DNA of 44,196 nucleotides from a virus (lineage: Duplodnaviria; Heunggongvirae; Uroviricota; Caudoviricetes). Below the pieces are notes generated by a model that was not told where the DNA came from, did not search any database, and worked only from the letters and a program-made list of their open reading frames with translations. Shown piece by piece: positions 14,085 through 43,669 of the stretch. Position numbers and translations under genes: made by a program. The stretch lies in the IMG/VR virus record IMGVR_UViG_2778261274_000007, positions 1-44,196 of that record, one strand, 5' to 3'. Position 1 is the first letter of the stretch. Every line of letters begins with the position of its first letter.

Positions 14085-14107
14085 TCACCGTATTGCGTAA
14101 TTTCTAA

Positions 14108-16095: not shown

Positions 16096-16098
16096 TTT

Positions 16099-20105: not shown

Positions 20106-20116
20106 CTGAGGTAATT

Positions 20117-22168: not shown

Positions 22169-22182
22169 TCAGGAGAAATACG

Positions 22183-23388: not shown

Positions 23389-23437
23389 TCACTCAGGGGC
23401 GTGGAACCGCGCCCCCTGTTCTGACGGGTGAAGAATC

Positions 23438-23638: not shown

Positions 23639-23640
23639 GT

Positions 23641-25433: not shown

Positions 25434-25584
25434 AGGGCGGTCAGTGCCTGACCCTGCCCGCGGCGACCTTTTGCCCGCCGAAGGGCGAAATGTTGACGAG
25501 AACAACTACTGGCTGCGCCGTGAAGCAGCGGGTGATATCCGGCGCGTGAATAAAAAGGTGAATACCGATGACGATAAGCTTTAA
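25414..25584 (+). CDS. DUF2635 (Mu gp38-like) small protein (56 aa)
   Basis: ATG at 25414 with GAGGA RBS; translation MFVKPVKGRSVPDPARGDLLPAEGRNVDENNYWLRR...; not in the ORF track (<60 aa). Confidence 0.45.
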   Translation: MFVKPVKGRSVPDPARGDLLPAEGRNVDENNYWLRREAAGDIRRVNKKVNTDDDKL

Positions 25585-27064
25585 CACCATTCCGTCGAAT
25601 ACGCTGGTTCCGTTGTTTTATGCGGAAATGGATAACCAGGCGGCGAATACTGCACAGGACAGCGGAGCATCGCTGCTGATTGGTCATGCCAATAACGGTG
25701 CAGAGATTGTTGCCAACAGTCTGGTACTGATGCCGTCGGCAGACTATGCACGCCAGATTTGTGGTGCGGGAAGTCAGCTGGCGCGTATGGTCGAGGCTTA
25801 TCGCCAGACCGATCCGTTTGGCGAGCTGTATGTGATTGCCGTTCCTGAATCCACAGGCGCGGCGGCAACAGTTACGCTGACGGTGACCGGGGCAGCAACC
25901 GAAACCGGCACGGTGAATGTTTATGTGGGACGTACCCGCGTGCAGGCACCGGTGACCAACGGCGATAACGTCGCGACGATTGCCAGCAGTATCAAAGATG
26001 CCATCAATGCCGTTCCGGCCCTGCCGTTTACGGCCTCATCTTCGGCTGGTGTGGTTACATTGACCGCTCGCCATAAGGGGCTTTGCGGGAATGAAATTCC
26101 TGTCAGCCTCAATTACTACGGCTTCGGTGGGGGCGAAGTGCTGCCAGCGGGCGTACAGATTGCCGTGGCGACGGGGACCGCCGGAACGGGCGCTCCGGTT
26201 CTCACCGGCGCGGTGGCTGCAATGGCGGATGAGCCGTTTGATTATATCGGTCTGCCGTTCAACGACACGGCCTCTGTTAACACGCTGGTGACCGAGATGA
26301 ACGATACCAGCGGTCGCTGGAGCTATGCGCGTCAGCTGTATGGTCATGTGTATACGGCAAAGGCCGGCACACTGTCAGAACTGGTGAACGCAGGTGCCCA
26401 GTTTAACCAGCAGCACATCACCCTGGCGGGGTACGAAAAAGAGACCCAGACGCCTGCCGACGAGCTGGCAGCCAGCCGTACCGCCCGCGCAGCGGTGTTT
26501 ATCCGCAACGATCCGGCACGTCCCACGCAGACCGGTGAGATGGTGGGTATGCTGCCTGCGCCGAAGGGGAAACGGTTCACGATGACCGAACAACAGACCC
26601 TGCTGTCTCATGGCGTGGCAACGGCGTATGTCGAAAGCGGGGTACTGCGCATTCAGCGTGATGTCACCACGTACAGGAAAAACGCTTACGGGGTTGCGGA
26701 TAACAGCTACCTCGACAGTGAGACACTGCATACCAGCGCGTATGTACTGCGCAAACTGAAATCCGTCATTACCAGTAAGTACGGGCGTCACAAGCTTGCC
26801 AGTGACGGTACCCGCTTTGGTCCCGGTCAGGCGATTGTCACCCCGGCGGTGATCAAAGGGGAACTGCTGGCAACCTACCGTCAGCTTGAGCGTGCGGGGA
26901 TCGTGGAAAACTACGAACTGTTTAAGCAGTACCTGGTTGTGGAGCGTGATGCCAGCGATCCGAACCGCCTGAACACGCTGTTCCCGCCTGACTATGTTAA
27001 CCAGTTGCGTGTCTTTGCCGTGGTTAACCAGTTCCGTCTTCAGTATTCAGAGGAGTCTGCATAA
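25568..27064 (+). CDS. Contractile tail sheath protein (Mu L-like; 498 aa)
   Basis: Size, position and family resemblance. Confidence 0.85.
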   Translation: MTISFNTIPSNTLVPLFYAEMDNQAANTAQDSGASLLIGHANNGAEIVANSLVLMPSADYARQICGAGSQLARMVEAYRQTDPFGELYVIAVPESTGAAATVTLTVTGAATETGTVNVYVGRTRVQAPVTNGDNVATIASSIKDAINAVPALPFTASSSAGVVTLTARHKGLCGNEIPVSLNYYGFGGGEVLPAGVQIAVATGTAGTGAPVLTGAVAAMADEPFDYIGLPFNDTASVNTLVTEMNDTSGRWSYARQLYGHVYTAKAGTLSELVNAGAQFNQQHITLAGYEKETQTPADELAASRTARAAVFIRNDPARPTQTGEMVGMLPAPKGKRFTMTEQQTLLSHGVATAYVESGVLRIQRDVTTYRKNAYGVADNSYLDSETLHTSAYVLRKLKSVITSKYGRHKLASDGTRFGPGQAIVTPAVIKGELLATYRQLERAGIVENYELFKQYLVVERDASDPNRLNTLFPPDYVNQLRVFAVVNQFRLQYSEESA

Positions 27065-27420
27065 TGGCCCGTATCGGGGGAACCTGTTATTTCAAAATTG
27101 ACGGTCAGCAGCTATCGCTGACCGGCGGCATTGAGGTGCCCATGAACAGGACGGTCAATGATGACATCATCGGCCTGGACGGTTCAGTGGACCGCAAGGA
27201 AACTCACCGTGCGCCCTATGTCAAAGGGACCTTCAAGGTGCCGAAGAATTTTCCGGTGAGCAAAATCACCTCGTCTGATGAGATGACCATCACTGCCGAG
27301 CTGGCGAACGGTCAGGTCTATGTACTGTCGTCTGCCTGGCTGCACGGCGAAGCGAACCATAATGCCGAAGAAGGCACGGTTGATCTTGAGTTCCACGGTG
27401 AAGAAGGGGATTACCAGTGA
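27064..27420 (+). CDS. Tail tube protein (118 aa)
   Basis: Follows the sheath. Confidence 0.75.
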   Translation: MARIGGTCYFKIDGQQLSLTGGIEVPMNRTVNDDIIGLDGSVDRKETHRAPYVKGTFKVPKNFPVSKITSSDEMTITAELANGQVYVLSSAWLHGEANHNAEEGTVDLEFHGEEGDYQ

Positions 27421-27740
27421 TTGAGCTTGTACTTAAAAAACCGATCATCGCCCACAAAGAAACACTGCATGTGCTGGAAATACGTGAGCCTACGTATGAC
27501 GAGATTGAGGCGCTGGGGTTCCCTTTCTCTGTTTCACCTGATGGTGGTATGAAAATGGACAGTCAGGTAGCGCTGAAATATATCCCGCTTCTGGCCGGGA
27601 TCCCGCGCTCGTCTGCAGCGCAGATGACGAAGCTGGATATTTTCAAGGCAGGCATGATTGTAATGCGTTTTTTTACCGGCTTGGAGACGGAAGAGACCTC
27701 CGGAAGCGATTCTACAATGTCGCGTGGTTCTGGAAATTAA
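27417..27740 (+). CDS. Tail assembly chaperone (107 aa, GTG start); probable -1 frameshift isoform extends to 27832
   Basis: Position between tube and tape measure; in-frame slippery heptamer T_TTT_TTT. Confidence 0.6.
   Translation: MIELVLKKPIIAHKETLHVLEIREPTYDEIEALGFPFSVSPDGGMKMDSQVALKYIPLLAGIPRSSAAQMTKLDIFKAGMIVMRFFTGLETEETSGSDSTMSRGSGN
27668..27674 (+). promoter_or_regulatory. Candidate programmed -1 ribosomal frameshift site (T TTT TTT)
   Basis: Heptamer in the zero frame of the chaperone; the -1 frame is open from here to the TGA at 27830..27832. Confidence 0.35.
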
Positions 27741-27824
27741 ACCCCCTTGAACTTCGCCGGACGGCTATTTCCCACTTTGCTGATCTGGAGGCAGAGGCCG
27801 TCCGTATAAATGAGGAGATGAAGC

Positions 27825-29732
27825 ATGGCTGATAATTTTCAGCTGAAAGCCATCATCACCGCCGTTGACAGGCTGTCCGGCCCGCTTAAAGGTATGCAGC
27901 GTCAGCTTAAGGGGTTTCAGAAAGAAGTCTCCAGCCTTGCTCTGGGCGCTGCCGGGGCGGGTACTGCAATAATGGGGGCACTGGCACTCCCTGTAAAATC
28001 AGCCATCACCCTTGAATCGAAGATGGCTGATGTCCGCAAAGTGGTAGACGGTCTGGATACGCCGGATGCGTTTAAGGCCATGACGGAGCAGGTACGCGCT
28101 TTGTCTACTGAGCTTCCCATGTCTGCAGACGGGATCGCGGAAATTGTGGCGGCTGGCGGTCAGGCCGGGATTGCACGTGATGAACTGATGCAGTTTGCCA
28201 CTGATGCGGTGAAGATGGGCGTGGCCTTTGATACCACGGCTGAAGAGTCCGGGCAGATGATGGCCCAGTGGCGTACTGCGTTTAATATGACGCAGGATGA
28301 AGTGGCCGGGCTGGCTGACAAAATCAACTACCTTGGTAATACCGGCCCGGCGAATGCGAAGAAAATCTCCGATATTGTTACGCGTATTGGTCCTTTAGGT
28401 GGTGTTGCAGGTGTGGCTTCCGGCGAAATCGCGGCAATGGGGGCAACCATTGCCGGGATGGGCGTGGAGTCAGAAATTGCCGCCACAGGGATCAAGAACT
28501 TCATGCTTTCCCTGACCGCGGGAAATTCCGCGACAAAATCGCAGAAACAGGCATTACGTTTTCTGCGGATCAATCCGAAGAAATTAGCTGCTGATATGCA
28601 GAAAGATGCCCGGGGAACCATGCTGTCTGTACTGGATGCGATGGCTAAAGTGCCCAAAGAAAAACAGGCAGCTGTGCTGAATGCCCTGTTCGGGAAAGAG
28701 TCTCTGGGCGCGATAGCACCTCTGCTGACTAACCTTGATTTGTTGCGTACCAACTTCAGGCGGGTTGCGGATTCCCAGCAGTATGGCAGTTCGATGCAGA
28801 AGGAATATGCTTCGAGGGCAGCGACGACGGAAAACCAGCTTTTACTTCTGCAAAATCAACTTGATGCCATTTCTTCCACGCTGGGGGAAACGTTTCTTCC
28901 TGAGGTTAATGATGGTCTTGAAGCGGTAAAACCGCTCCTTGAGGAAGTGAGAACGTTTGTCCGTGAAAACCCGGAGCTCGTTAAGACCATTGCTAAAATC
29001 GGTCTGGCCTTACTGACGGTGGGAGCCGCTGCAGGCTCTTTGTCCAGAATTATGAAAGTTCTCGGCGGTGTGATGAATATGACGCCTGCTAAGGGGCTGA
29101 TTGCTCTTCTGGTTGGTGGCGCTTACCTCATTATTGATAACTGGGAAACCGTAGGTCCTGTCATAAAAAAAGTCTGGCACGTGGTGGATGAAACGGCGCA
29201 GGCGATGGGGGGATGGGAAACTGTTCTGAAAGCGATTGCCCTGTTTATGGCAACCAAATGGGTTGCTGACGTTACCAAATCCATTACCGCAGTGACCAGA
29301 GAGATGCGTACGCTGGGGAAGGTATCGGCAGAAACGGGATTGATGGGGAAAGGCCGCGGCTTTATCGGGAAGGCCGGGGTATATGGTTTTCTGGGAACCC
29401 TGATGTATGAGCCGGTTAAAGATACTCTGGAAAGTGTTGTTCCTGAAGATACGGTTAACTGGCTGGATAATAAAGGGCTGTTTCTGGCTTCAGACTGGAC
29501 GCCTTTTTTTGATCGTAAAGAGTACGAGCAGTATCAGGCCAGCCTGAGTCAGTACAAACCCAATGTTCCGCTGTTGAATCCATCTTCTTCCATGACACAG
29601 CACAGCGAGCTGAAAGTCACGTTCGAGAATGCTCCGCCAAGTATGAAGATAATTGATGTACCGGGCAAAGCCGATCCCCTGATGAAAATCACGCACGATG
29701 TGGGGTATTCCCCTTTTCGTTTTCCACGATAA
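27825..29732 (+). CDS. Tail tape measure protein (635 aa)
   Basis: Long Ala/Gly-rich alpha-helical protein in the expected position. Confidence 0.85.
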   Translation: MADNFQLKAIITAVDRLSGPLKGMQRQLKGFQKEVSSLALGAAGAGTAIMGALALPVKSAITLESKMADVRKVVDGLDTPDAFKAMTEQVRALSTELPMSADGIAEIVAAGGQAGIARDELMQFATDAVKMGVAFDTTAEESGQMMAQWRTAFNMTQDEVAGLADKINYLGNTGPANAKKISDIVTRIGPLGGVAGVASGEIAAMGATIAGMGVESEIAATGIKNFMLSLTAGNSATKSQKQALRFLRINPKKLAADMQKDARGTMLSVLDAMAKVPKEKQAAVLNALFGKESLGAIAPLLTNLDLLRTNFRRVADSQQYGSSMQKEYASRAATTENQLLLLQNQLDAISSTLGETFLPEVNDGLEAVKPLLEEVRTFVRENPELVKTIAKIGLALLTVGAAAGSLSRIMKVLGGVMNMTPAKGLIALLVGGAYLIIDNWETVGPVIKKVWHVVDETAQAMGGWETVLKAIALFMATKWVADVTKSITAVTREMRTLGKVSAETGLMGKGRGFIGKAGVYGFLGTLMYEPVKDTLESVVPEDTVNWLDNKGLFLASDWTPFFDRKEYEQYQASLSQYKPNVPLLNPSSSMTQHSELKVTFENAPPSMKIIDVPGKADPLMKITHDVGYSPFRFPR

Positions 29733-29756
29733 CGCAGTCCTTTTTGAGGTCAGTCT

Positions 29757-31133
29757 ATGGATTTATCCTCATTTCCCACCCGACCTTCATTACTTTCGTC
29801 GTCTTCAGGCTGGCGTGACAGACTTCAGGACGCGTCATTTCGCGGCGTGCCGTTTAAGGTTGAAGAAGAAAGTGCGGGAACCGGTCGCCGTGTGGAAACA
29901 CATGAATACCCGAACCGCGACAAACCCTATACCGAAGACCTGGGGAAAATCACTTTTCGCCCGTCCATCACGGCTTATGTGGTGGGAGATGACTGCTTTG
30001 ACCAGCGCGATCGCCTGATTGACGCGCTGAATAAACCCGGTCCCGGCACGCTTGTCCATCCGACATACGGTGAGCTGAAAGTCTGTGTTGACGGAGAAGT
30101 TCGGGTCAGCACATCGAAGAGTGAAGGGCGTATTGTCCGCTTTGACCTGAAGTTTGTCGAAGCGGGAGAACTCTCTTACCCCACTTCAGGTGCGGCGACG
30201 GCGCAGACGCTGATGTCATCCTGTTCTGCACTGGATGACTGCATCAGTGACAGCTTCAGAGGTTTCAGTATCGATGGCGTGGCGGATTTCGTGCAGAACG
30301 ACGTCGTTGGTAATGTCAGCACAATGCTTGGGTATGTTTCTGATGCGATGAAAGTGGTGGATTCTGCCGTATCGGATGCTGCCAGGCTGTTGCAGGGGGA
30401 TATCTCGGTACTTCTGCCGCCACCATCGTCAGGCAAAAATCTCGTTGAGCAGGTGCAGAAAATGTGGCGTACCGGGAAACGCCTTTATGGTAACGCCAGC
30501 GACCTGGTCACCATGATCAAAACGCTTTCCGGTGTCAGCCTCGGCAGCGATCTGCAACCGCGCGGCGTCTGGAAAACGGACAGTAAAACCACCGCCACGG
30601 CTACGCAGCAGCGTAATGTGGTTGCCAGCACCCTTCGTACGACCGCAATCAGTGAAGCGGCGTATGCCGTCACCCGATTGCCTGCGCCAACAACTTCCGC
30701 GGTGATGCAGAATTCCGCAGTGGGGCAGGCAACAACACCTGCGCAGAGCACTGGCTGGCCTTCCGTCACGCATCCGGCACTGAACAATGCACCGGCGGTG
30801 AAAAACACGGTTGACCTGCCGACGTGGGAAGAACTGACTGACATTCGCGACACACTGAATACGGCAATTGATAAGGAGTTGTCCCGTACAACCAGTGATG
30901 CGCTGTTTCTGGCGCTGCGCCGGGTGAAAGCAGATCTGAATGCGGATATCAACACGCGCCTTGAACAGTCTGCACGGATCATTCAGCGCACACCGGATGA
31001 GGTTTTACCCGCGCTGGTGCTGGCGGCGACCTGGTTTGATAACGCGGCGCGTGACGCGGACATTATCCGGCGTAATGCCATTACGCATCCCGGCTTTGTG
31101 CCGGTGATCCCTCTGAAGGTGCCAGTGCAATGA
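29757..31133 (+). CDS. Mu N-like DNA circularisation protein (458 aa)
   Basis: Position after the tape measure in the Mu-like order. Confidence 0.7.
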   Translation: MDLSSFPTRPSLLSSSSGWRDRLQDASFRGVPFKVEEESAGTGRRVETHEYPNRDKPYTEDLGKITFRPSITAYVVGDDCFDQRDRLIDALNKPGPGTLVHPTYGELKVCVDGEVRVSTSKSEGRIVRFDLKFVEAGELSYPTSGAATAQTLMSSCSALDDCISDSFRGFSIDGVADFVQNDVVGNVSTMLGYVSDAMKVVDSAVSDAARLLQGDISVLLPPPSSGKNLVEQVQKMWRTGKRLYGNASDLVTMIKTLSGVSLGSDLQPRGVWKTDSKTTATATQQRNVVASTLRTTAISEAAYAVTRLPAPTTSAVMQNSAVGQATTPAQSTGWPSVTHPALNNAPAVKNTVDLPTWEELTDIRDTLNTAIDKELSRTTSDALFLALRRVKADLNADINTRLEQSARIIQRTPDEVLPALVLAATWFDNAARDADIIRRNAITHPGFVPVIPLKVPVQ

Positions 31134-32209
31134 ACGACAATGTCACGCTACGGGTAAATGGCCGGGAGTGGAATGGCTGGACATCGGTGCGCATCGGTGC
31201 CGGTATTGAACGGCTGGCGCGGGATTTCAGTGTGGAGATCACTCGCCAGTGGCCGGGAGATGAGGGTATCACCACGCTTCAGCCGCGCATTAAAAACGGT
31301 TCAAAAGTGGAAGTGCTGATTGGTGATGAGCTGGTGATCACCGGCTGGGTGGAGGCGACTCCCGTTCGTTACGATGCCCGTTCGGTCAGCACCGGTATTG
31401 CCGGACGTAGTCTGACGGCTGACCTGATTGACTGTGCAGCCGAACCGACACAGTTTAACGGACGCTCGCTGGTGCAGATTGCGCAGGCGCTTGCTGCGCC
31501 TTTCGGCATTGAGGTGGTGAACAGCGATGCGCCGTCGGGTGTTATTCCTGATGTTCAGCCTGATCACGGTGAAACGGTGATTGAGGTAATCAACAAAATA
31601 CTCGGTCAGCAGCAGGCACTGGCTTACGACGACCCGCACGGCAGGCTGGTGATTGGCGGTATTGGCTCAACGCGGGCACATACTGCGCTGGTACTCGGGG
31701 AAAACATCCTTTCCTGCGATACGGAGAAGAGTATCCGGGAGCGATTTTCTGTTTACCAGGTGGCGGGGCAGCGTGCCGGGAACGACGATGATTTCGGTGA
31801 GGCCACCACCACCGCGCTGCGGGCCCGCACAGAGGACGCATTTATTGCCCGTTACCGTCCGATGTATATCAGGCAGACAGGGCAGGCCACGGGGGCAGGC
31901 TGTATTGCGCGTGCTGACTTTGAAGCCCGACAACGGGCGGCGCGGACGGATGAAACCACCTATTTGGTGCAGGGCTGGCGACAGGGTAACGGTACGCTGT
32001 GGCAGCCCAACCAGCGGGTGATTGTCTTCGATCCGGTCTGTGGTTTCGACAATACCGAACTGCTTGTCTCGGAAGTCACGTTCACTCAGGACCAGAACGG
32101 CACCATGACGGAAATCCGTGTCGGCCCACCTGATGCTTATCTGCCTGAACCCGAAGCCCCCGGCGCGCGGAAAAAGAAAAAAGCCAGAGTACAGGAGGAC
32201 TCGTTCTGA
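31130..32209 (+). CDS. Baseplate hub protein (Mu P-like; 359 aa)
   Basis: Position and family resemblance. Confidence 0.65.
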   Translation: MNDNVTLRVNGREWNGWTSVRIGAGIERLARDFSVEITRQWPGDEGITTLQPRIKNGSKVEVLIGDELVITGWVEATPVRYDARSVSTGIAGRSLTADLIDCAAEPTQFNGRSLVQIAQALAAPFGIEVVNSDAPSGVIPDVQPDHGETVIEVINKILGQQQALAYDDPHGRLVIGGIGSTRAHTALVLGENILSCDTEKSIRERFSVYQVAGQRAGNDDDFGEATTTALRARTEDAFIARYRPMYIRQTGQATGAGCIARADFEARQRAARTDETTYLVQGWRQGNGTLWQPNQRVIVFDPVCGFDNTELLVSEVTFTQDQNGTMTEIRVGPPDAYLPEPEAPGARKKKKARVQEDSF

Positions 32210-32757
32210 TGAGGACGATTGAAGCCATGCAGCGACAACTCCTCGGCCTGATTGGGCGGGCAGTGGTGAAAAGCATCAGTGCCGCCACGAAATGTCAGAC
32301 CGTGGATGTGTCCCTGATTGCCGGTGAACCCAAAGCCGGGGTTGAACATCTTGAACCCTACGGTTTTACCGCAAGGGCAAACAGCGGTGCGGAAGCGGTG
32401 GTGTTGTTTCCGGATGGCGACCGTTCTCATGCGGTGGTTGTTACGGTGTCGGACCGGCGCTACCGCCTGAAAGGGCTGCAGACGGGTGAGGTGGCTGTCT
32501 ATGACGATCAGGGGCAGTCTGTGACGCTGACCCGGGAGGGGATCGTGGTGGACGGTGCAGGTAAAACGATCACGTTTCGCAATGCGCCCAGAGCACGTTT
32601 TGAAATGGACCTGGAAGTGACCGGACAGGTGAAAGACCTGTGCGACTCCGGCGGCACCACCATGTCAGCGATGCGGCTTGCCTATAACGGCCATTGTCAC
32701 AGAGAGAACGGTCAGGGCAGTAACACCGACAAACCGGATAAAGCGATGGAGGCATGA
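32209..32757 (+). CDS. Baseplate spike / assembly protein V-like (Mu gp45-like; 182 aa)
   Basis: Position and family resemblance. Confidence 0.65.
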   Translation: MRTIEAMQRQLLGLIGRAVVKSISAATKCQTVDVSLIAGEPKAGVEHLEPYGFTARANSGAEAVVLFPDGDRSHAVVVTVSDRRYRLKGLQTGEVAVYDDQGQSVTLTREGIVVDGAGKTITFRNAPRARFEMDLEVTGQVKDLCDSGGTTMSAMRLAYNGHCHRENGQGSNTDKPDKAMEA

Positions 32758-33182
32758 TGGAACTGTGGCTGACGGTGAACGGTAAACGCACCTGCGCCAG
32801 CGCACCGCTGGATCCGCTGACCCGCGCCGTGGTGATTTCCCTGTTTACCTGGCGGCGGGCGGAGCCTGATGACAACGCCGACGTCCCGATGGGATGGTGG
32901 GGGGATACCTGGCCTGCGGTACAGAATGACCGTTACGGCTCCCGACTGTGGCTGCTTCAGCGCAGCAAACTGACCAATCAGCTGGTGCAGACGGTAAGGG
33001 GGTATATCCGCGAATGCCTGCAATGGATGATTGATGATGGCGTGGTGTCCCGTATTGATCTGGATATCCGCCGCACCGGGATTAATGAACTGGGTAACAG
33101 TATCACTCTCTGGCGTCGTGACGGACCGGTAATGATTTCTTTTGATGATCTGTGGAGTGCGATAACGCATGGCGGACAGTGA
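32754..33182 (+). CDS. Mu gp46-like baseplate protein (142 aa)
   Basis: Position and family resemblance. Confidence 0.65.
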   Translation: MMELWLTVNGKRTCASAPLDPLTRAVVISLFTWRRAEPDDNADVPMGWWGDTWPAVQNDRYGSRLWLLQRSKLTNQLVQTVRGYIRECLQWMIDDGVVSRIDLDIRRTGINELGNSITLWRRDGPVMISFDDLWSAITHGGQ

Positions 33183-34227
33183 ATTTCAGCGCCCGACGCT
33201 GGCAGAAAATATCAGTATGCTCCGTAACGATTTATTCGCCAGGCTGGACGTCAGCGACACGCTCCGGCGCATGGATGAAGACGTGCGGGCAAAGGTGTAT
33301 GCGGCGGCGCTGCATACGGTTTACGGTTACATCGATTATCTGGCAATGAACATGCTGCCTGACCTGTGCGATGAGTCCTGGCTGGCGCGACATGCTGCGA
33401 TGAAACGGTGTCCGCGCAAGGGGGCCACGGCTGCCAGCGGGTATATGCGCTGGGAAGGTGTCAGCGATGGCCTGAAGGTGACTGCCGGGAGCGTGATTCA
33501 GCGCGATGACCTGGTTCAGTACACGGCAACTGCCGATGCAACCAGCACCGGTGGTGTCCTGCGTGTGCCGATCACTTGCTCAAGTGCAGGCGCGGTCGGT
33601 AACGCTGAAGACGGTACGGCATTAATCCTGGTCACGCCGGTGAATGGTCTGCCGTCTTCCGGTGTTGCAGATACCCTGACTGGCGGATTCGATACTGAAG
33701 ATCTGGAAACGTGGCGCGCCCGCGTCATTGAGCGGTATTACTGGACGCCGCAGGGCGGGGCTGACGGGGACTATGTCGTCTGGGCTAAAGAAGTGCCCGG
33801 CATTACCCGCGCATGGACATACCGTCACTGGATGGGAACGGGAACTGTCGGTGTGATGATTGCCAGCAGTGACCTGATTAATCCCATTCCGGAAGAATCA
33901 ACGGAAACGGCGGCAAGACAACATATCGGGCCACTGGCCCCGGTGGCAGGCTCTGATTTGTATGTGTTCAGGCCGGTAGCACATACGGTGGATTTTCATA
34001 TCCGCGTGACGCCGGACACACCGGAAATACGGGCTGCCATCACCGCCGAGTTGCGTTCGTTCCTGCTGCGTGATGGTTATCCGCAGGGAGAACTGAAGGT
34101 GTCACGTATCAGTGAAGCGATTTCCGGTGCGAACGGGGAATACAGCCATCAGTTGCTTGCCCCGGCGGACAATATCTCCATTGCAAAAAATGAGCTGGCA
34201 GTTCTGGGGACGATTTCATGGACGTGA
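33169..34227 (+). CDS. Baseplate J-like protein (Mu gp47-like; 352 aa)
   Basis: Size and family resemblance. Confidence 0.8.
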
Positions 34228-34802
34228 CAAACGATGATTATATCCGTCTGTTGTCGGCACTGTTGCCGCCCGGTCCGGCGTGGTCAGTCAGCGATCCGGC
34301 GATTGCCGGTGCGGCACCGTCATTAACCCGCGTTCATCAGCGTGCGGATGCCCTGATGCGGGAGCTGGATCCGCGCACCACCACTGAACTGATAAACCGC
34401 TGGGAGCGTCTGTGCGGTCTGCCGGATGAATGTATTCCCGCAGGGACACAAACCCTTCGCCAGCGTCAGCAACGGCTGGATGCGAAGGTTAATCTGGCGG
34501 GCGGCATCAATGAGGATTTTTACCTTGCACAGCTTGCTGCCCTGGGCAGACCAGACGCCACTATCACGCGATACGATAAAAGCACGTTCACCTGCTCATC
34601 GGCCTGTACTGACGCAGTGAATGCGCCGGAATGGCGGTATTACTGGCAGGTCAACATGCCAGCCGCCACCAACACCACCTGGATGACATGTGGCGATCCC
34701 TGTGATTCCGCACTGCGTATCTGGGGCGACACCGTTGTCGAGTGCGTGCTTAACAAACTCTGCCCTTCGCATACCTACGTAATTTTTAAATATCCGGAGT
34801 AA
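34218..34802 (+). CDS. Mu gp48-like / DUF2313 tail protein (194 aa)
   Basis: Position and family resemblance. Confidence 0.65.
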
Positions 34803-34805
34803 TCC

Positions 34806-35486
34806 ATGCATCGTATAGACACGAAAACCGCGCAGAAGGATAAGTTCGGCGCGGGTAAGAACGGTTTTACCCGTGGTAACCCCCAAACCGGCACACCTGC
34901 CACCGATCTGGATGATGACTACTTTGATATGTTGCAGGAAGAACTCTGCAGCGTGGTGGAGGCATCCGGTGCCAGCCTGGAGAAGGCGCGGCACGACCAG
35001 TTGCTTACCGCGCTTCGTGCGCTGCTGTTAAGCCGCAAGAATCCGTTTGGCGATATCAAATCGGATGGCACGGTGAAAACGGCTCTCGAAAACCTTGGTT
35101 TGGGAGAAGCGGCAACGAGGAACGTCGGAACGGATACCGGGCAAGTACCAGATATGAGTAGTTTTACAACGGGGCACTCTGGAGCAGCAGACTGGCCGAA
35201 TCCTAAATCTGGATGGAGTAAGGGGCCGGATGGGGTAATTACACAATGGGGTATTTTCGGTTTCCCCGTTGGACAGACAGGGACGAATGTTGTTTTCCCG
35301 CTACCTTTCCCCGCGCGGGTCGAATCAATTACACTGACAATGGCAGATATCCAGGAGTCTCTGCTTTCTCCAGCAACCATGCCTGCTTATGGAGTTAAAT
35401 CAACTGGTACTTCAAGAACGGGTTTTACAGCCCGTATGTCAGGCGCCGGTGGGTTTAATCTTTGCTATATAGCGAAAGGGAGATAA
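34806..35486 (+). CDS. Tail fibre protein: constant N-terminus fused to the currently expressed variable tip (226 aa)
   Basis: Crossover site lies inside the ORF at 35084..35109. Confidence 0.65.
35084..35109. repeat. Invertase crossover site (hix/gix-like), left
   Basis: TCTCGAAAACCTTGGTTTGGGAGAAG; its reverse complement matches 37032..37057. Confidence 0.55.
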
Positions 35487-35490
35487 CAGA

Positions 35491-35934
35491 ATGAATAAAG
35501 TTAAAAGTGTTTACAGCCCGTCCGAAAATGCAATCTACAACGCAGCGCTATATGAAAGTTATATCAAGGAGGGGACATGGCCGCAGGATGGTATTGAAAT
35601 CAGCGATGAGGATGCTGTCAGATTTAATGGGGGAAATAAGCCAACAGGAAAAATGCTGGGAATGGTTTCAGGGGCCCTTGCATGGGTTGATGAGCCGCCG
35701 CTTTCACCAGAACAGAAAATATCAGATGCAGAAAACATGAAAGCCACATTTCGTGCAAAAGCTGACAGTGAAATATCCTGGCGTCAGGATGCTGTTGATG
35801 CGGGCATTGCAACTGATGAAGAAACTTCAACTCTCACCCAATGGAAGAAATACCGTGTGCTGCTGATGCGTGTTGATACTTCAACAGCCCCCGATATTGA
35901 ATGGCCTACGCCTCCGGCAGTTCAGGCCAGATGA
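35491..35934 (+). CDS. Tail fibre assembly chaperone, current orientation (147 aa)
   Basis: Immediately downstream of the tail fibre gene. Confidence 0.65.
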   Translation: MNKVKSVYSPSENAIYNAALYESYIKEGTWPQDGIEISDEDAVRFNGGNKPTGKMLGMVSGALAWVDEPPLSPEQKISDAENMKATFRAKADSEISWRQDAVDAGIATDEETSTLTQWKKYRVLLMRVDTSTAPDIEWPTPPAVQAR

Positions 35935-36511
35935 CATCCGGCGCGGTGCTGGTATCTGTTACCGTCACCGCGTCAATGTAATCCAGCACGACGTTAAGTC
36001 GGGTTGTTTCTGCCTGCGTCAGCTTCCGCCCGGCCTGTAATTTCAGTTGAATCAGACTGATGGAAGCCATTGCAGCATCAATCAGCGACTGGCGCTGTGC
36101 TTCTGCCGCGTCTACTGCGGCACTATGCTGTGCCTCAGTATCTGTCACCCATTTCTCACCATCCCATTTATCGTATGGCGTTAACGGGACGATAGTGGTT
36201 GTATTTTCAGGGTAATCACACGGAGCTGTGATTTCTTTTGATTCTCCCGTTTCGGTGTTATAGACAACTTCACCGCGATGGTCTGGCACATATTCCCATG
36301 AGTTTAAATCTGCCGAACGGCAGATTGCATAACCAACCTTATGTGTGCCAGGAGCATCTAAACAGGAATATGCAGGGATACCGACACCCACAGCAAGATA
36401 TTCAGTTGATGCAGAAATATACTCCCGTGTCTCACTGTCATAGTTATAAACGGTAATCTCTCCTGCCTTTGTGGCAATAAATTTACTATTCAAGATGGCG
36501 TTATACATCAT
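35906..36511 (-). CDS. Alternative tail fibre assembly chaperone (201 aa)
   Basis: Inverted partner gene inside the invertible segment; C-terminus ...DTSTAPD(V/I)WPE shared with the plus-strand chaperone. Confidence 0.6.
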   Translation of the reverse strand: MMYNAILNSKFIATKAGEITVYNYDSETREYISASTEYLAVGVGIPAYSCLDAPGTHKVGYAICRSADLNSWEYVPDHRGEVVYNTETGESKEITAPCDYPENTTTIVPLTPYDKWDGEKWVTDTEAQHSAAVDAAEAQRQSLIDAAMASISLIQLKLQAGRKLTQAETTRLNVVLDYIDAVTVTDTSTAPDVIWPELPEA

Positions 36512-37086
36512 GCAGCCCTCACAATGTAATTAAATGAAATATTACGTGGGCGTGTCTCTGCTGCACCGACAATACTGGTACTCAACCCCGTCGCTGTTCG
36601 TTTGTTATTTTTATTTCCTTCAATCAGACAGTTGTAATCATCATTACCAATTAACGAATTAGTGGCATCAATACCGTCCGGGGACAAGGCATTAGTTGTA
36701 GAACTTAAAGTCAGCATCTCGTCTGAACTTGGAAGATTTTTTAATGGTATTTCATTGCGAGAAATACCCGCGTAAAAAAAGGACTCATGCCTGTGCGCTT
36801 CAAAAGAGTCATCCTGAAGACTTAGCAAGGCACGTCCCGCATCCACTCCACGCCCGTCATCCCAGCCACGAATAAACTCACCACGTAAATCAGGCAATTT
36901 ATTTGTCGGATAAGCCTTTGCCAGTTCCGGGTATTCTTCTGCAGAAAAAGCGGCACCGTTGCATTTCAGCCAGCCTGTTGGCGGAGTGGCGGAAGGCCAC
37001 GGAACAGGCACGCCAACGGGTAATGCCGAACCTTCTCCCAAACCAACGTTTATGAAAATGCAGAAATAACGAGCAAATGGCATCAT
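36508..37086 (-). CDS. Alternative tail fibre tip with tail-collar domain, silent until inversion (192 aa)
   Basis: Starts at the right crossover site; encodes ...NVGLGEG... matching the ...NLGLGE... junction of the expressed fibre; PDLRGEFIRGWDDGRG collar motif. Confidence 0.55.
   Translation of the reverse strand: MMPFARYFCIFINVGLGEGSALPVGVPVPWPSATPPTGWLKCNGAAFSAEEYPELAKAYPTNKLPDLRGEFIRGWDDGRGVDAGRALLSLQDDSFEAHRHESFFYAGISRNEIPLKNLPSSDEMLTLSSTTNALSPDGIDATNSLIGNDDYNCLIEGNKNNKRTATGLSTSIVGAAETRPRNISFNYIVRAA
37032..37057. repeat. Invertase crossover site (hix/gix-like), right, inverted
   Basis: CTTCTCCCAAACCAACGTTTATGAAA; inverted repeat of the left site. Confidence 0.55.
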
Positions 37087-37112
37087 TCCTGCTTTTGTCA
37101 GGGAGATCTACC

Positions 37113-37667
37113 ATGCTTATTGGCTATGTACGTGTGTCAACAAATGACCAGAACACAGATCTACAACGTAATGCGCTGAACTGTGCAGGATGCGAGCTGA
37201 TTTTTGAAGACAAGATAAGCGGTACAAAGTCCGACAGACCAGGACTGAAAAAGCTGCTCAGGACATTATCGGCAGGTGACACGCTGGTGGTCTGGAAACT
37301 GGACCGACTGGGGCGCAGTATGCGGCATCTTGTCGTGCTGGTGGAGGAGTTGCGCGAACGAGGCATCAACTTTCGTAGTCTGACGGATTCAATTGATACC
37401 AGTACCCCAATGGGGCGCTTTTTCTTTCATGTGATGGGTGCCCTGGCTGAAATGGAGCGTGAACTGATTGTTGAACGAACAAAAGCTGGACTGGAAGCTG
37501 CTCGCGCACAGGGACGAATTGGTGGACGTCGTCCCAAACTTACACCAGAACAATGGGCGCAGGCCGGGCGATTAATTGCATCAGGCGTTCCTCGCCAGAA
37601 GGTGGCGATCATCTATGATGTTGGTATATCGACACTGTATAAGAAGTTTTCGGTCGGAGATAAATGA
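37113..37667 (+). CDS. pin: Serine DNA invertase, Pin/Gin/Hin family (184 aa)
   Basis: MLIGYVRVSTNDQ catalytic-serine motif; C-terminal HTH; adjacent to the invertible segment. Confidence 0.85.
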   Translation: MLIGYVRVSTNDQNTDLQRNALNCAGCELIFEDKISGTKSDRPGLKKLLRTLSAGDTLVVWKLDRLGRSMRHLVVLVEELRERGINFRSLTDSIDTSTPMGRFFFHVMGALAEMERELIVERTKAGLEAARAQGRIGGRRPKLTPEQWAQAGRLIASGVPRQKVAIIYDVGISTLYKKFSVGDK

Positions 37668-37704
37668 AACCGTAGCACGTCGTATGCAAGATCGTGCTGC
37701 GGTT
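37665..37704. repeat. Direct repeat copy 1 (imperfect palindromic stem-loop) at the left edge of the nuclease/R-M cassette
   Basis: TGAAACCGTAGCACGTCGTATGCAAGATCGTGCTGCGGTT; near-identical copy at 41835..41875. Confidence 0.5.
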
Positions 37705-37724
37705 TATGCTTATCACTTAAAGAC

Positions 37725-38543
<819 letters not shown>

Positions 38544-38904
38544 TCATTGCAAGGGCTCACAACCAGTAGTGTTGAGAAAACCATCGGAGAAATGAGGCTA
38601 AGCCTTTGAATTTACATAGTACAAAAAAGATACTTTTCCTCATAATGTGAGCTAATTTTATGTTTCGTTTGATGATTGGACCGGTCTCGAAAACCGTAGA
38701 CACATAGTATGCGTTAATTTATGAACAAACTACTTGTCTGCTGTTTTTCTGTCATTAGTCGTATATAGAATGATTCTCTATGCCTAACAAAGCATCACCA
38801 GTGCTAGATTACGTTGTAGTCACTGTTTAAATATCCAGATAAAACATTTCCTTCTGGGTTGAATGAGTGATAAAGTTTCACCCATTAGACCCCTTGGAGG
38901 AATT

Positions 38905-40338
38905 ATGTCTGAATTTGAAGTGTTGGCACAGCATCTGCTGAAGGAAGCCGAGGCGGAAGAAAAGCTGCGACAGGAAAATGATAAAAAGCTTATCGAGAAA
39001 GTGCTGGAAATCTATGATCAGAAGTATGTGGCTGAATTACTGAGAAAAGTCGGAAAAAATGAGTGGAGCCGTGAAACCATTAACCGCTGGATTAATGGCA
39101 AGTGTTTACCAAAATCGTTGACTTCAGTAGAAGAGTCTCTTCTGCGTAAGATGCTACCAGAACCACCTGCAAACCATCCGGAATATGCTTTCCGCTTCAT
39201 TGACTTATTTGCTGGAATTGGAGGGATACGGAAAGGTTTTGAGGCCATTGGAGGCCAGTGTGTTTTTACCAGTGAATGGAATAAAGATGCTGTGCGTACA
39301 TACAAGGCCAACTGGTTTAACGATGAACAGGTGCATAAATTCAATCTCGATATTCGGGAAGTCACGCTGAGTGATAAAACCGATGTATTGGAAACGGATG
39401 CTTATGCATATATTGATGAGCATGTGCCGGATCATGATGTGCTTCTTGCGGGGTTCCCGTGCCAGCCATTTAGCCTTGCTGGTGTTAGTAAGAAAAACTC
39501 ACTTGGTCGTGCGCATGGTTTTGAATGTGAAGCACAAGGAACACTTTTTTTTGACGTGGCACGTATTATACGAGCAAAAAAACCGGCAATTTTTGTGCTG
39601 GAAAATGTCAAAAATCTGAAGAGCCATGATAAGGGTAAAACTTTCAAAGTCATTATGGAGACCCTTGACGAGCTGGGCTACGAAGTTGCCGATGCTGCAG
39701 AAATGGGAAAAAACGATCCAAAGATTATCGATGGGAAGCATTTTTTGCCTCAGCATCGTGAACGCATTGTTCTGGTCGGATTTAGACGAGATCTGAATAT
39801 TCACAAGGGGTTTACCTTGCGTGATATCAGTCGTTTTTATCCGGAACACCGCCCATCATTTGGTGAATTGCTGGAGCCTGTAGTCGACAGTAAATATATA
39901 CTTACGCCAAAACTATGGGAGTACCTTTATAACTACGCCAAAAAGCATGCAGCCAAGGGGAATGGTTTTGGCTTTGGGTTGGTCAATCCTGAGAATAAGG
40001 AAAGCATTGCACGCACACTTTCTGCCAGATATCACAAAGACGGATCAGAAATTCTTATTGATCGTGGTTGGGATATGGCAACGGGAGAGGCTGACTTTAT
40101 GAATGAGAGTAATCAGGCTCGTCGACCACGCAGGCTGACTCCCCGAGAGTGCGCACGCCTTATGGGATTTGAAAAACCTGGAGGGAAACCATTCCGTATT
40201 CCGGTTTCAGATACTCAGTCATATCGGCAGTTCGGTAACTCAGTTGTGGTGCCAGTATTTGAAGCTGTTGCCAGACTTCTGGAACCCTATATCCTCAAAG
40301 CTGTTTCTGCTGATGCTGGTAAGACTGGGCAGCCTTGA
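38905..40338 (+). CDS. ecoRIIM: DNA C5-cytosine methyltransferase, Dcm / M.EcoRII family (477 aa from internal Met)
   Basis: Motifs I ([10 protein letters not shown]), IV (GFPCQPFS) and VI (ENVKNL); close resemblance to E. coli Dcm; GGAGG RBS at 38896. Confidence 0.8.
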
Positions 40339-40372
40339 GAACATCTCCCGGCCTTTTAAGCCGGGAGTCAGC

Positions 40373-41587
40373 CTATGATAGTTCAGCGTAAAGCTCTATC
40401 AGCTCAGTAATGAATGCTCCGAGCGTTATTAATTCTTCTCTAACTGCTTCTGGGTATTTTTTATGTAAAGTTGATGGTACAACGAGTCTGACACCCGCAT
40501 CTTTCATTTCTCGGTATTGTGCTGAAGAAACACCTTCTTGCAGTGTAAATAAATGTACCTGATGGATTTTATCTGCTTCATTCAGTATCTGACGCCAGCG
40601 ATCTTTGCAGGTGGTCTTTACTGCCAGCATACGTAAGTTTTCTACAGGAAATTCAACGTTATGATATGCCTCTGCTGAAGGAAACAGGAAATCTGGTTTT
40701 TTATTACCTTCAGTAACTGCCTGAGTGGAGAAATGCCGTAGTCCGTGCTCGATAAAAAGCTTCTCTAGGTGAAGTTCAAGTGATTTGCCTGCCCTTGATT
40801 TACGTCGATTACTGACAGAGTTGGCTAATGCAATAAACTCATCTACAGAATCGAATCCTTTCTTAATAATATCAAGAACATGTAATTCCTCGACGAGTAG
40901 AAAAATATCATACTCGACACGCCGACGGTCAATCAGTTGCTCATCTGGATCCTTGGAGTTTTTAGCATAATGGCCAGCAGCATATTGAATAATTTCGTTT
41001 CCAGAAGGAAAACGCTTCTTCCAGTCTTCAGGAATAACATATTTATGATTTACTGGAGTTTGCTGAAGAGACAATCCGCCCAAAATTTGTCCGGCAGGGC
41101 CGGAAATTAGGGTTCCAGGTATGATTTCGCCAATAGCAGACTCGATGATATCCTCTTCATCGGGATTGACGCAGACCCATATATCTACCTCGGAACAGTC
41201 AGTGTTCTGTTCGTTTAACCTGAAAGCAAGAATTGTGAGGGCTCCTGTATTTTCAGGGTTCTGTAATGGACTTCCTCTCCCCCAGCGCGTAATTCTTTTT
41301 TCGTTTCGGGTCTTACCAAAATAACGGTTGTTGTAATAAATTGCGCGTGCTTGGGTATCAGGGCAATCATGGGATGATACATGCGCAGTAAGGAAGACTG
41401 AAGGGTTCAGTTCGCGAGTATGATTGATAGATGGAAAAAGCTTTTCAACGATATTTGAGGGGATATAAAGTCCGACCTGATGGCCACCTGTTGCGCCTGT
41501 GTCGTTTGCAGAAAGGCGTTTGATGTAGATAAAGTAATTCCCGCTTGCGATATCAAGCAGCCAGTTATGAAAAACCGACATATACAT
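40373..41587 (-). CDS. ecoRIIR: Type IIE restriction endonuclease, EcoRII-like (404 aa)
   Basis: Convergent with the Dcm-family methyltransferase; length and N-terminal sequence consistent with R.EcoRII as recalled. Confidence 0.7.
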   Translation of the reverse strand: MYMSVFHNWLLDIASGNYFIYIKRLSANDTGATGGHQVGLYIPSNIVEKLFPSINHTRELNPSVFLTAHVSSHDCPDTQARAIYYNNRYFGKTRNEKRITRWGRGSPLQNPENTGALTILAFRLNEQNTDCSEVDIWVCVNPDEEDIIESAIGEIIPGTLISGPAGQILGGLSLQQTPVNHKYVIPEDWKKRFPSGNEIIQYAAGHYAKNSKDPDEQLIDRRRVEYDIFLLVEELHVLDIIKKGFDSVDEFIALANSVSNRRKSRAGKSLELHLEKLFIEHGLRHFSTQAVTEGNKKPDFLFPSAEAYHNVEFPVENLRMLAVKTTCKDRWRQILNEADKIHQVHLFTLQEGVSSAQYREMKDAGVRLVVPSTLHKKYPEAVREELITLGAFITELIELYAELS

Positions 41588-42233: not shown

Positions 42234-42279
42234 ATTCGTAATGCGAAGGTCGTAGGTTCGACTCCTATTATCGGCACCA
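42234..42279 (+). repeat. attR: partial copy of the thrW 3' end
   Basis: 46 bp identical to 1399..1444. Confidence 0.8.
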
Positions 42280-42454
42280 TCCTACCTATTTTAACGTCTC
42301 CTTAAGTCTACTCAAATACCTTTTAAACCCTTATAATACGCGGCTTCACGGCCCTTGTTGTCTCTGCTCGTCTACTCACGTTCACAGAAATCTACGGTGA
42401 GTTGGGGGTATCAATGGGGGTATTCGCTGTTCGGTCTAAAGGAGATACCCCCAG

Positions 42455-43669
42455 ATGAAGCTCAATGCCAGACAGGTCGAGACTGCCAAGCCCAAAGATA
42501 AACCCTACAAGATGGCTGATGGTGGTGGCCTCTACTTATTGGTTAAAACTAACGGGTCACGCTACTGGCGTTTAAAGTATCGTATCGATGGAAAGGAAAA
42601 GTTATTGGCGCTGGGGGTATATCCCGATGTGTCTTTGGCTGATGCCAGAGCAAAGCGTGATGAAGCTCGAAAAGGTATCGCTGGGGGTATCGATCCTTTA
42701 GAGCTTAAGAAAGAACATAAAGCTGAGCGTGAAGCGCAGGTCAAAAACACCTTTCAGCAAATTGCGCTCGAATGGCACAGCATGAAAGTGAAAAAATGGT
42801 CAGTTGGGTATGCCTCTGACATTCTCGAAGCTTTCAATAAAGATATTTTTCCTTTTCTTGGTCAACGGCCTGTTGCGGACATTAAGCCATTAGAGCTTCT
42901 TAATGTGCTTAAAAAAATCGAAGCCAGAGGTGCAACAGAGAAAGCAAAGAAAGTGCGCCAACGATGTGGTGAAGTGTTTCGCTATGCCATCGTGACAGGC
43001 AGAGCCGAGTATAATCCCGCTCCTGATCTCACCAGTGCCATGCAGGGGCATGAATCTACACATTACCCGTTCCTGACCACCGAAGAGCTTCCTGCCTTTT
43101 TTAAAGCCCTTGCTGGCTACTCTGGTAGTGAATTGATGGTGTTGGCAGCAAGATTATTGATCCTTACTGGCCTAAGAACGGGTGAATTGCGTGGTGCCTT
43201 ATGGTCGGAAATCGATTCCGAGAAAGCGCTATGGGAAATTTCTGCTGAACGCATGAAAATGCGCCGTCCTCATATCATCCCGCTATCTACCCAAGCGTTA
43301 GCCATTATCGAAAAGATCAGAGCAATGACGGGACAATTCCCTTTGCTGTTTCCGGGCCGCAATGATCCAAGTAAGACCATGAGCGAAGCCAGTATCAATC
43401 AGGTATTTAAGCGAATCGGCTATACAGGACGGGTTACGGGTCACGGCTTCCGTCATACCATGAGCACCGTTCTTCATGAACAGGGCTACAACACCGCATG
43501 GATTGAAACCCAACTAGCCCATGTTGATAAGAATGCTATCCGTGGCACCTACAACCATGCGCAATATCTCGATGGCAGACGCGAGATGCTGCAATGGTAT
43601 GCCGACTACATGGTAAGCCTTGAGAAAGGCGGTAATGTCGTACAGGGAACGTTTAATCGGTGTGGGTAA
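42455..43669 (+). CDS. Tyrosine integrase, P4-like (404 aa)
   Basis: N-terminal KYRIDGKEKLLALGVYP arm-binding-type region; C-terminal HGFRHT and RGTYNHAQY. Confidence 0.85.
   Translation: MKLNARQVETAKPKDKPYKMADGGGLYLLVKTNGSRYWRLKYRIDGKEKLLALGVYPDVSLADARAKRDEARKGIAGGIDPLELKKEHKAEREAQVKNTFQQIALEWHSMKVKKWSVGYASDILEAFNKDIFPFLGQRPVADIKPLELLNVLKKIEARGATEKAKKVRQRCGEVFRYAIVTGRAEYNPAPDLTSAMQGHESTHYPFLTTEELPAFFKALAGYSGSELMVLAARLLILTGLRTGELRGALWSEIDSEKALWEISAERMKMRRPHIIPLSTQALAIIEKIRAMTGQFPLLFPGRNDPSKTMSEASINQVFKRIGYTGRVTGHGFRHTMSTVLHEQGYNTAWIETQLAHVDKNAIRGTYNHAQYLDGRREMLQWYADYMVSLEKGGNVVQGTFNRCG

Follow-up and report, generated by a model that had tools for sequence, protein, structure and literature searches.

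A probable Pin-dependent host-range switch of the e14 P and Mu G kind in the tail-fibre locus of a complete SfV-like prophage

Described switches and the prophage carrying the locus

The closest described relatives of the locus analysed here are the G segment of phage Mu, inverted by Gin, and the P segment of the e14 element of E. coli K-12, inverted by PinE; the C segment of P1, with its invertase Cin, is a further switch of the Mu G kind. In Mu, a constant fibre part is followed by the left crossover site, a tip, its chaperone, a second chaperone, a second tip, the right site, the invertase and cargo for DNA modification, and the genes run in the order gp47-gp48-S-U-U'-S'-gin. The e14 order is ymfQ-stfP-tfaP-tfaE-stfE-pinE, and a gp53-like tip is likewise paired there with a tail-collar tip. 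Inversion in e14 has been demonstrated by WGS and PCR (PMC4272514) and by qPCR, which showed it to depend on PinE and PinQ, with pinE and pinE pinQ mutants of K-12 being locked in a single orientation (PMC12529663). It is also reported to yield StfE2, a leader joined to the gp53-like tip, which blocks adsorption of T2 (PMC12529663).

The window (the whole 44,196-nt stretch of DNA that was analysed) has the same layout as Mu and shares the gene orders of both systems. Its sequence-level identity to these characterised systems settles what the locus is: an intact copy of the e14/Mu-type Pin/P-segment switch with allelic tips, an ordinary feature of an already known kind. That it acts as a Pin-invertible tail-fibre tip segment, a host-range switch with two alternative tips and their chaperones, is the reading favoured here, with a probability of roughly 0.85.

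The element carrying the locus is a complete SfV/SfIV-like myovirus prophage of roughly 41 kb, inserted in tRNA-Thr, with attL and attR, a complete structural module and an intact late operon. The structural module is about 97.5% identical to those of the isolated phages SfIV, SfII, SfI and vB_EcoM-720R4, and the cargo past pin consists of PD-T4-3 and EcoRII restriction-modification genes.

Tips, chaperones and crossover sites

Coordinates of the features are collected in Table 1. Upstream of the constant fibre part lie Mu gp47-like and gp48-like (YmfQ) baseplate genes, and the constant part itself weakly matches the N-terminal end of Mu tail fibre S (PDB 5yvq/8ju3). Between the sites, the 1,950-bp segment holds tip A and chaperone A, followed by chaperone B and tip B on the minus strand. 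Tip A is the C-terminus currently in the fibre reading frame in the window orientation and has weak PDB matches to the short tail fibre gp92 (9zd7) and a putative tail fibre protein (4mtm). Tip B, for which a weak match to S_tail_recep_bd and PDB matches (9cuy, 2xgf, T4 gp12) were also found, is the silent alternative C-terminus in this orientation. Each tip has a chaperone of its own, the two Caudo_TAP genes lying one on each strand: chaperone A starts 4 nt past the fibre stop codon, and the ATG of chaperone B overlaps the stop codon of tip B (ATGA). The two genes are convergent and overlap by 29 nt. The frame of tip B runs on to an ATG at 37086, giving it an 18-aa leader and making it an orphan ORF equivalent to the 'stfE' of K-12. 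The minus-strand tip and chaperone should be annotated as a silent alternative allele, and not as pseudogenes or fragments with a 'missing N-terminus'.

Table 1. Features of the invertible tail-fibre locus, in positions of the window
Feature	Position	Strand	Evidence or remarks
Tail fibre ORF, 226 aa	34806..35486	+	LGLGE is residues 97-101; exchange point in the Leu97 codon
Constant N-terminal fibre part, residues 1-97, outside the segment	34806..35096	+	PHROG tail-fibre N-terminal families, E 1e-78
Left 26-bp crossover site	35083..35108	+	CTCTCGAAAACC-TT-GGTTTGGGAGAA, central TT at 35095-35096
Tip A, gp53-like C-terminal domain, residues 98-226 (129)	35097..35486	+	Pfam PF21882 Gp53-like_C, E 2.5e-10
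Chaperone A, tail-fibre assembly protein, 147 aa	35491..35934	+	Pfam Caudo_TAP, E 7e-33; phrog_188, E 3e-52
Chaperone B, TfaE-like, 201 aa	35906..36511	-	Pfam Caudo_TAP, E 6.5e-30
Tip B, tail-collar, gp12-like distal part, 178 residues	36508..37044	-	Pfam Collar PF07484, E 1.7e-15
Right 26-bp crossover site	37033..37058	+	TTCTCCCAAACC-AA-CGTTTATGAAAA, central AA at 37045-37046
pin, serine DNA invertase, 184 aa	37113..37667	+	Pfam Resolvase, E 1e-51; HTH_7, E 8e-13
Candidate Fis-dependent recombinational enhancer	37135..37197	+	Inside the 5' end of pin; placed by conservation

In a repeat search one inverted repeat stood out, its arms being 35090-35109 and 37032-37051 (20 nt, 95% complementary, 1922 nt apart), and any 20-nt inverted repeat with at most one mismatch appeared in only two of 200 shuffles of 34000..38500. 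The limits of the 26-bp sites were set in register with Mu gixL and gixR. Both sites are imperfect dyads around AAACC-NN-GGTTT, agree at 21 of 26 positions when compared in inverted orientation, and have the central dinucleotide (TT/AA) in common; each is identical to the respective K-12 e14 site at all 26 positions. The inner half of the left site codes for G-L-G-E of the fibre. With up to one mismatch allowed across the whole window, the core motif AAACCNNGGTTT was found elsewhere only at 6339 and 24501, where the core alone was compared. A shufflon-like system of multiple inversions was considered and rejected, the region having only two sites and these one-mismatch core matches lying far from the segment.

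A sequence-only reading of this DNA had described the present orientation as a fibre tip with a plus-strand chaperone and a second tip and chaperone on the minus strand, with which the ORFs and Pfam domains agree. The inverted sites it placed at 35084..35109 and 37032..37057 are also real, although their exact limits were one base off in each case, which is immaterial.

Invertase, inversion product and alternative readings

The ORF list starts pin at 37077, whereas homology favours the start MLIGYVRVS at 37113. The protein has the N-terminal catalytic domain and C-terminal HTH of small serine recombinases of the invertase subfamily, and residues 1-179 align to the Gin structures 3uj3 and 4m6f (E about 1e-94). 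Arg7, Ser9, Asp64, Arg65 and Arg68 are all kept, and the eight substitutions that separate Pin from K-12 PinE (95.7% identity) spare the catalytic positions. Within the candidate enhancer, two Fis-like 15-mers (37135..37149 and 37183..37197) have centres 48 bp apart, the first starting with T where the consensus has G. The region is identical to K-12 pinE at 62 of 63 positions and to Mu gin at 50 of 63, the 15-mers are conserved at 13-15 of 15 positions across the window pin, pinE and gin, and both the position and a TAATG element agree with the description of the Hin enhancer (PMC3798978). A scan with a degenerate Fis consensus gave many matches, elsewhere as well, and is not discriminating alone, so the enhancer was placed by its conservation in pinE and gin and by published descriptions. 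A simple scan of 34600..37800 for sigma-70 promoters and terminators gave no match ahead of either pin or the orphan ORF and is uninformative, promoter-like sites being fewer there than in shuffles.

Inversion in silico at the central dinucleotides makes an in-frame fusion of residues 1-96 with the tail-collar tip, a fibre of 275 aa. All 275 residues are identical to those of an annotated 'phage tail protein' of strains WP4-S18-ESBL-08 and B1S11, both of which carry the flipped segment. Both fibres, the 226-aa A form and the 275-aa B form, are open fusions of one constant N-terminus to alternative C-termini. In a set of 5,426 complete E. coli genomes, the tip pair occurs in the window orientation in 24 and flipped in 18, the records compared being complete-level assemblies, so that both orientations exist in nature as a difference between genomes. 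In two flipped records, L002 and L009, the inversion is clean and its breakpoints fall within the repeat; identity is 99.3% for the inner segment, which lies on the strand opposite to the flanks, and 92-97.9% for the flanks themselves. The prophage of L009 is orthologous to that of the window and shares its tRNA-Thr attachment site.

Strain RM9088 also carries junction A, at 100% identity, but its prophage lies at dusA and has a different recombinase, and it is not the same element.

The main claims of the sequence-only reading are borne out by these comparisons. The adjacent pin gene was said to supply the invertase, and it has no disruptive change, keeps its catalytic residues and is homologous to Gin and PinE; the predicted fusion of the constant N-terminus at LGLGE to the tail-collar tip, with the other chaperone brought in, corresponds to the 275-residue protein found in flipped genomes. 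A single orientation coupled with an inactivated pin had been named as evidence against a switch, and what was found is 24 against 18 genomes across the orientations and an intact pin. The attribution to the Mu G and e14 P type was exact, given the e14-identical sites, the 95.7% identity to PinE and the Mu gene order.

In the favoured reading, Pin would recombine the two inverted 26-bp sites and flip the 1,950-bp segment, presumably with host Fis bound to the candidate enhancer in the initial ~85 nt of pin. Since the left site lies inside the fibre gene at the Leu97 codon, the constant, baseplate-attaching N-terminus (residues 1-96) would be retained while one of two tips is gained: in orientation A, that of the window, the gp53-like tip of 129 residues with chaperone A downstream, and in orientation B the tail-collar tip of 178 residues with chaperone B downstream. 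Expression within the fibre would be limited to whichever tip and chaperone face the late operon. If switching occurs within a culture and the tips differ in host range, the virions released by a lysogen population would be of two kinds, differing in receptor specificity, a form of bet-hedging like that of Mu G, P1 C and e14 P, and a phage induced from such a lysogen may have two host ranges.

The segment might instead be a fossil, frozen in orientation A in this prophage, for example because the enhancer no longer works or pin is no longer expressed, with the flips seen elsewhere being old. Related isolated phages do exist without the switch (in SfIV an IS element stands in for tip B, the right site and pin), stfE of K-12 is annotated as a pseudogene, and the simple scan gave no promoter-like match upstream of pin. 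It is nevertheless very improbable that the switch is dead, as pin carries no disruptive change, the two sites match functional e14 sites at every position and the enhancer region is nearly that of pinE (62/63). Flipped and unflipped copies, moreover, occur at much the same frequency (24:18) and differ by just 0.7% in the segment, which indicates that flipping is recent and recurrent. It is scarcely credible that RecA-mediated recombination across the 20-bp repeats or faulty assembly, instead of Pin, accounts for the orientation differences, even if inverted repeats can in principle all mediate inversion and short-read assemblies can be confused by repeats. The repeat is just 20 nt long, probably not enough for RecA to recombine it efficiently, and the genome records are complete-level assemblies. 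The central dinucleotides match, a requirement of serine-invertase chemistry, and the pinE and pinE pinQ mutants of K-12 are held in one orientation (PMC12529663).

Another explanation accepts the inversion as real but sees its selected role in the lysogen as defence, the orphan protein masking outer-membrane receptors against other phages. Orientation B joins the 18-aa leader MMPFARYFCIFINVGLGE, which lies upstream of the right site, to the gp53-like tip, giving a predicted orphan protein of 143 aa that is annotated as a CDS in both L002 and L009; the e14 chimera StfE2 is a proposed precedent for such an adsorption block (PMC12529663), and the switch adjoins the defence cargo of PD-T4-3 and EcoRII genes. 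The setting, however, is that of the classical host-range function, a complete phage whose late operon is intact, and tip A has diverged from K-12 StfP, the whole proteins being 56% identical and mostly so in the constant part. The orphan ORF has no promoter-like site in the scan and its ATG lies just 26 nt from the pin start codon, and the published StfE2 mechanism is based on overexpression and docking (PMC12529663). Defence as the selected role is therefore considered unlikely. Similarly doubtful is a dual-purpose switch, suggested by analogy, that might serve virion host range and, in orientation B, also produce the 143-aa protein to mask receptors alongside PD-T4-3 and EcoRII; if true, tail-fibre inversion would be a phase-variable defence element within an otherwise intact prophage. 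The host-range switch remains the preferred reading. Its importance outside correct annotation is small, but prophages that differ by the flip alone should not be counted as different.

Relation to known systems

Compared with Mu, the window has a compact version of the same layout. Mu Gin aligns end-to-end with Pin and the 26-bp sites of Mu align in register, whereas the Mu S and S' tip domains are unrelated to those of the window, the only match being the weak one in the constant N-terminus. The window fibres are much shorter (226 and 275 aa, against a Mu fibre gene S of 1,515 nt), the constant part has about 97 aa against about 170 aa, and the segment of 1.95 kb compares with about 3.06 kb between the annotated boundaries of the Mu G segment.

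The P2-like Peduovirus pro483 has the same block of tail-collar tip, TfaE-like chaperone and invertase, with DNA 87.5% identical over 35872..37570 and the same layout, but differs in its P2-type baseplate and constant fibre part and in the partner tip. The Shigella serotype-converting phages SfIV, SfII, SfI and SfV are about 97.5% identical in the morphogenesis module up to the constant fibre part. SfIV lacks the switch because its tip B, right site and pin have given way to an IS element and gtr genes; besides the fibre it retains no more than one chaperone and a second in truncated form.

With e14, orthology covers the sites, the invertase and the flanking ymfQ and constant fibre part, and does not extend to the tip alleles (the StfP tip, TfaP and distal StfE). 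The ymfQ-stfP stretch of e14 is 95.8% identical to the window ymfQ and constant fibre part, up to 35115, where DNA homology ends; it is back over 35872..36560 and once more from 36813 onwards. The alleles that differ are accordingly those of tip A, of chaperone A in its N-terminal part and of tip B in its distal part. The fibre is 56% identical to StfP and tip B 57% to StfE as whole proteins, TfaP matches chaperone A over the C-terminal ~75 residues only, and TfaE is 89.5% identical to chaperone B. The segment measures 1,950 bp in the window and 1,827 bp between the K-12 e14 site centres. The cargo of e14 is mcrA, in place of PD-T4-3 and EcoRII restriction-modification genes, and e14 is a defective element beside the icd gene remnant icdC, whereas the carrier here is a complete SfV-like prophage in tRNA-Thr. 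The locus is an orthologue of the e14 Pin/P-segment switch preserved in a complete SfV-like prophage, which is likely to be the ancestral, functional context of the K-12 remnant.

Crossover sites, inversion product and orientation in other genomes

A repeat search returned a single outstanding inverted repeat in the region, with 20-nt arms at 35090-35109 and 37032-37051 that are 95% complementary and lie 1922 nt apart, and two 26-bp crossover sites were defined by register with gixL and gixR, taken from the Mu record. The sequence-only reading had recognized the pair but placed each site one base off. In inverted orientation the left and right sites match at 21/26 positions and have the same central dinucleotide, and the inner half-site of each encodes G-L-G-E. 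When the surrounding 4.5 kb was shuffled 200 times, an inverted repeat of 20 nt with no more than one mismatch turned up in just 2 of the shuffles; more decisively, the sites at both ends are identical (26/26) to those of the e14 P segment of E. coli K-12 MG1655. With one mismatch at most, the core motif occurs elsewhere in the whole window only at 6339 and 24501, so a multi-site shufflon was rejected.

Features of the invertible segment, its invertase and the adjoining cargo (window positions)
Feature	Position	Strand	Length	Description
Tail-fibre ORF	34806..35486	plus	226 aa	follows Mu gp47-like (Baseplate_J) and gp48-like (YmfQ) genes
Left crossover site	35083..35108		26 bp	CTCTCGAAAACC-TT-GGTTTGGGAGAA
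Tip A	fibre residues 98-226	plus		gp53-like C-terminal domain, Pfam E 2.5e-10
Chaperone A	35491..35934	plus	147 aa	Caudo_TAP; starts four nt past fibre stop codon
Chaperone B	35906..36511	minus	201 aa	Caudo_TAP
Tip B	36508..37044	minus		tail-collar domain, Pfam Collar E 1.7e-15
Right crossover site	37033..37058		26 bp	TTCTCCCAAACC-AA-CGTTTATGAAAA
pin	37113..37667		184 aa	Resolvase and HTH_7 domains
Candidate enhancer	37135..37197			pin nucleotides 23-85
PD-T4-3 GIY-YIG protein	37725..38498	minus		PADLOC E 5e-140
C5-cytosine methyltransferase	38863..40338	plus		M.EcoRII-like
Endonuclease	40373..41587	minus		EcoRII-type

The exchange point falls within the Leu97 codon of the tail fibre. Tip B has an additional, weak gp12-like receptor-binding match, and its stop codon is overlapped by the ATG of chaperone B, the second, minus-strand chaperone proposed earlier to accompany the alternative tip; the two chaperone genes are convergent and overlap by 29 nt. 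Inversion in silico of 35096..37045, cut at the central dinucleotides, gives a 275-aa fibre in which the constant part is joined in frame to the collar tip, as had been anticipated. This junction is missing from the window but found in other genomes. Strain WP4-S18-ESBL-08 has the inner segment (35090..37051) at 99.3% identity on one strand and both flanks (ymfQ and baseplate genes on one side, pin on the other) on the opposite strand. The breakpoints lie inside the repeat, and an annotated 'phage tail protein' is identical to the predicted product (275/275). Strain B1S11 shows the identical flip in an orthologous prophage that has the window's att sequence, and the same protein accession occurs there. 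Among 5,426 complete E. coli genomes, searches specific to each junction found the window orientation (constant part joined to the gp53-like tip) in 24, the flipped orientation of the same tip pair (gp53-like tip adjoining pin) in 18, and the constant part joined to the collar tip, with any partner tip, in 514. Both states are thus common and flipped and unflipped copies differ by <1%, which implies that inversion has been recent and recurrent.

The silent tip (36508..37086, minus strand) has an in-frame 18-aa leader, MMPFARYFCIFINVGLGE, that starts 26 nt from the pin ATG; whichever tip faces pin therefore forms an orphan ORF. An in-frame ATG likewise precedes the right site in the unrelated backbone of E. 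coli COL60J.

Invertase, mechanism and alternative explanations

The adjoining pin gene, put forward earlier as the invertase, specifies a Gin-like protein, with residues 1-179 aligning to Gin crystal-structure sequences (E about 1e-94). It is 95.7% identical to K-12 PinE, and the eight substitutions leave R7, S9, D64, R65 and R68 untouched. The Gin enhancer was reportedly located inside the invertase gene by Kahmann et al. in 1985. The candidate enhancer of pin (62/63 identical to pinE, 50/63 to Mu gin) contains a conserved pair of Fis-like 15-mers, spaced 48 bp centre to centre, and between them a TAATG element that belongs to the described Hin enhancer (PMC3798978). We infer a Fis-dependent enhancer at the 5' end of pin.

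Classical Pin/Fis inversion is the best-supported explanation. Pin dimers would bind both crossover sites and exchange strands at the central dinucleotide, with host Fis on the enhancer, and the resulting flip would select the tip and chaperone to be expressed from the late operon. The switch may, by analogy with Mu G, alter host range. Tail-fibre genes are a recognized target class of programmed inversion (PMC4272514; PMC9881135). At the K-12 locus both orientations occur together in clonal MG1655-derived cultures, as seen by WGS and PCR (PMC4272514), and inversion needs PinE and PinQ, the double mutant being locked (PMC12529663). Flips mediated by RecA, or of artefactual origin, are very unlikely. 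A fossil switch is also unlikely, because Pin is intact, the crossover sites are identical to those of e14 and the two orientations are split 24:18. The outcome that would have refuted the sequence-only reading, a single orientation together with an inactivated pin, was not seen among these genomes.

A different role is suggested by the proposal that StfE2, a K-12 inversion chimera of a short leader and gp53-like tip, blocks T2 adsorption (2025 NAR paper; PMC12529663). Inversion here is predicted to create a corresponding ORF of 143 aa, which PGAP annotates as a CDS in flipped genomes (WP4-S18-ESBL-08, 2966..3397; B1S11, 10760..11191), but a promoter scan found none for this ORF and the gp53-like tip is a diverged allele. 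That the orphan chimera blocks adsorption of other phages is improbable, though such a role would be compatible with a host-range switch.

Carrier prophage and its cargo

A prophage of roughly 41 kb is delimited by an exact 47-bp direct repeat, with one copy at 1399..1445, where it overlaps the 3' end of tRNA-Thr(CGT), and the other at 42234..42280. The prophage lies beside a 417-aa aldehyde-dehydrogenase-family gene that is probably proA. The prophage encodes an integrase, large terminase, portal, head protease, HK97-type capsid, sheath, tape measure, Mu-type DNA-circulation protein, baseplate and endolysin. Window positions 15500..35100 are 97.5% identical to SfIV, SfII and SfI, 96.9% to SfV, and 97.6% (97% query coverage) to vB_EcoM-720R4.

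Defence cargo lies in the interval from pin to attR, at 37725..41587. In K-12 e14 this slot is taken by mcrA, in Mu by com/mom, in SfIV by an IS plus gtr genes, and in B1S11, EC052 and WP4-S18 by other genes; the region downstream of the invertase looks like a variable cargo hotspot. Inside the prophage, a three-gene minus-strand block at 12993..15432 encodes a metallo-beta-lactamase-fold protein of 363 aa, which has weak matches in PADLOC (RTasMBL, E 2e-11; LmuA, E 6e-7), and 190-aa and 251-aa proteins without family. This block could belong to the early region, or it could be an insert with an accessory or defence role. A second tyrosine integrase (42455..43669, plus strand, 404 aa; Arm-DNA-bind_3, Phage_int_M and Phage_integrase domains) begins some 175 nt past attR, which suggests a further integrative element in tandem at the tRNA-Thr locus.

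Relationship to known switches

Phage SfIV (NC_022749.1, 3501..6225) keeps the fibre and two chaperones, the second of them truncated. In place of tip B, the right site and pin it has an IS element (ISEhe3-like orfA with a transposase) and then gtr serotype-conversion genes; this is the switch in a decayed and locked form. In COL60J (NZ_CP092244.1, 2738..5577) the same cassette, 93.8% identical over the whole aligned stretch and 99.4% within the segment, is joined to another baseplate module and another recombinase. Its inner half-sites, encoding LGLGE, are conserved and the outer ones differ, so the invertible cassette travels as a module from one phage backbone to another. The P2-like phage pro483 shares the collar tip, chaperone and invertase block on a different backbone. 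Both patterns are the familiar mosaic exchange of tail-fibre modules.

All the defining features of invertase switches that are open to in-silico testing were found here, and the earlier assignment to the Mu G / e14 P type holds on both crossover sites and Pin. The feature is already known, its parts being routinely annotated in RefSeq (pinE, tfaE, 'gp53-like domain-containing protein', 'phage tail protein'). DNA homology to K-12 e14 ends at 35115, returns over 35872..36560 and resumes from 36813, the tips being allelic; the segment measures 1,950 bp between site centres compared with 1,827 bp in e14, and the carrier element and cargo differ. The locus is the e14 P segment / PinE system, for which a complete SfV-like myovirus prophage is presumably the ancestral setting.
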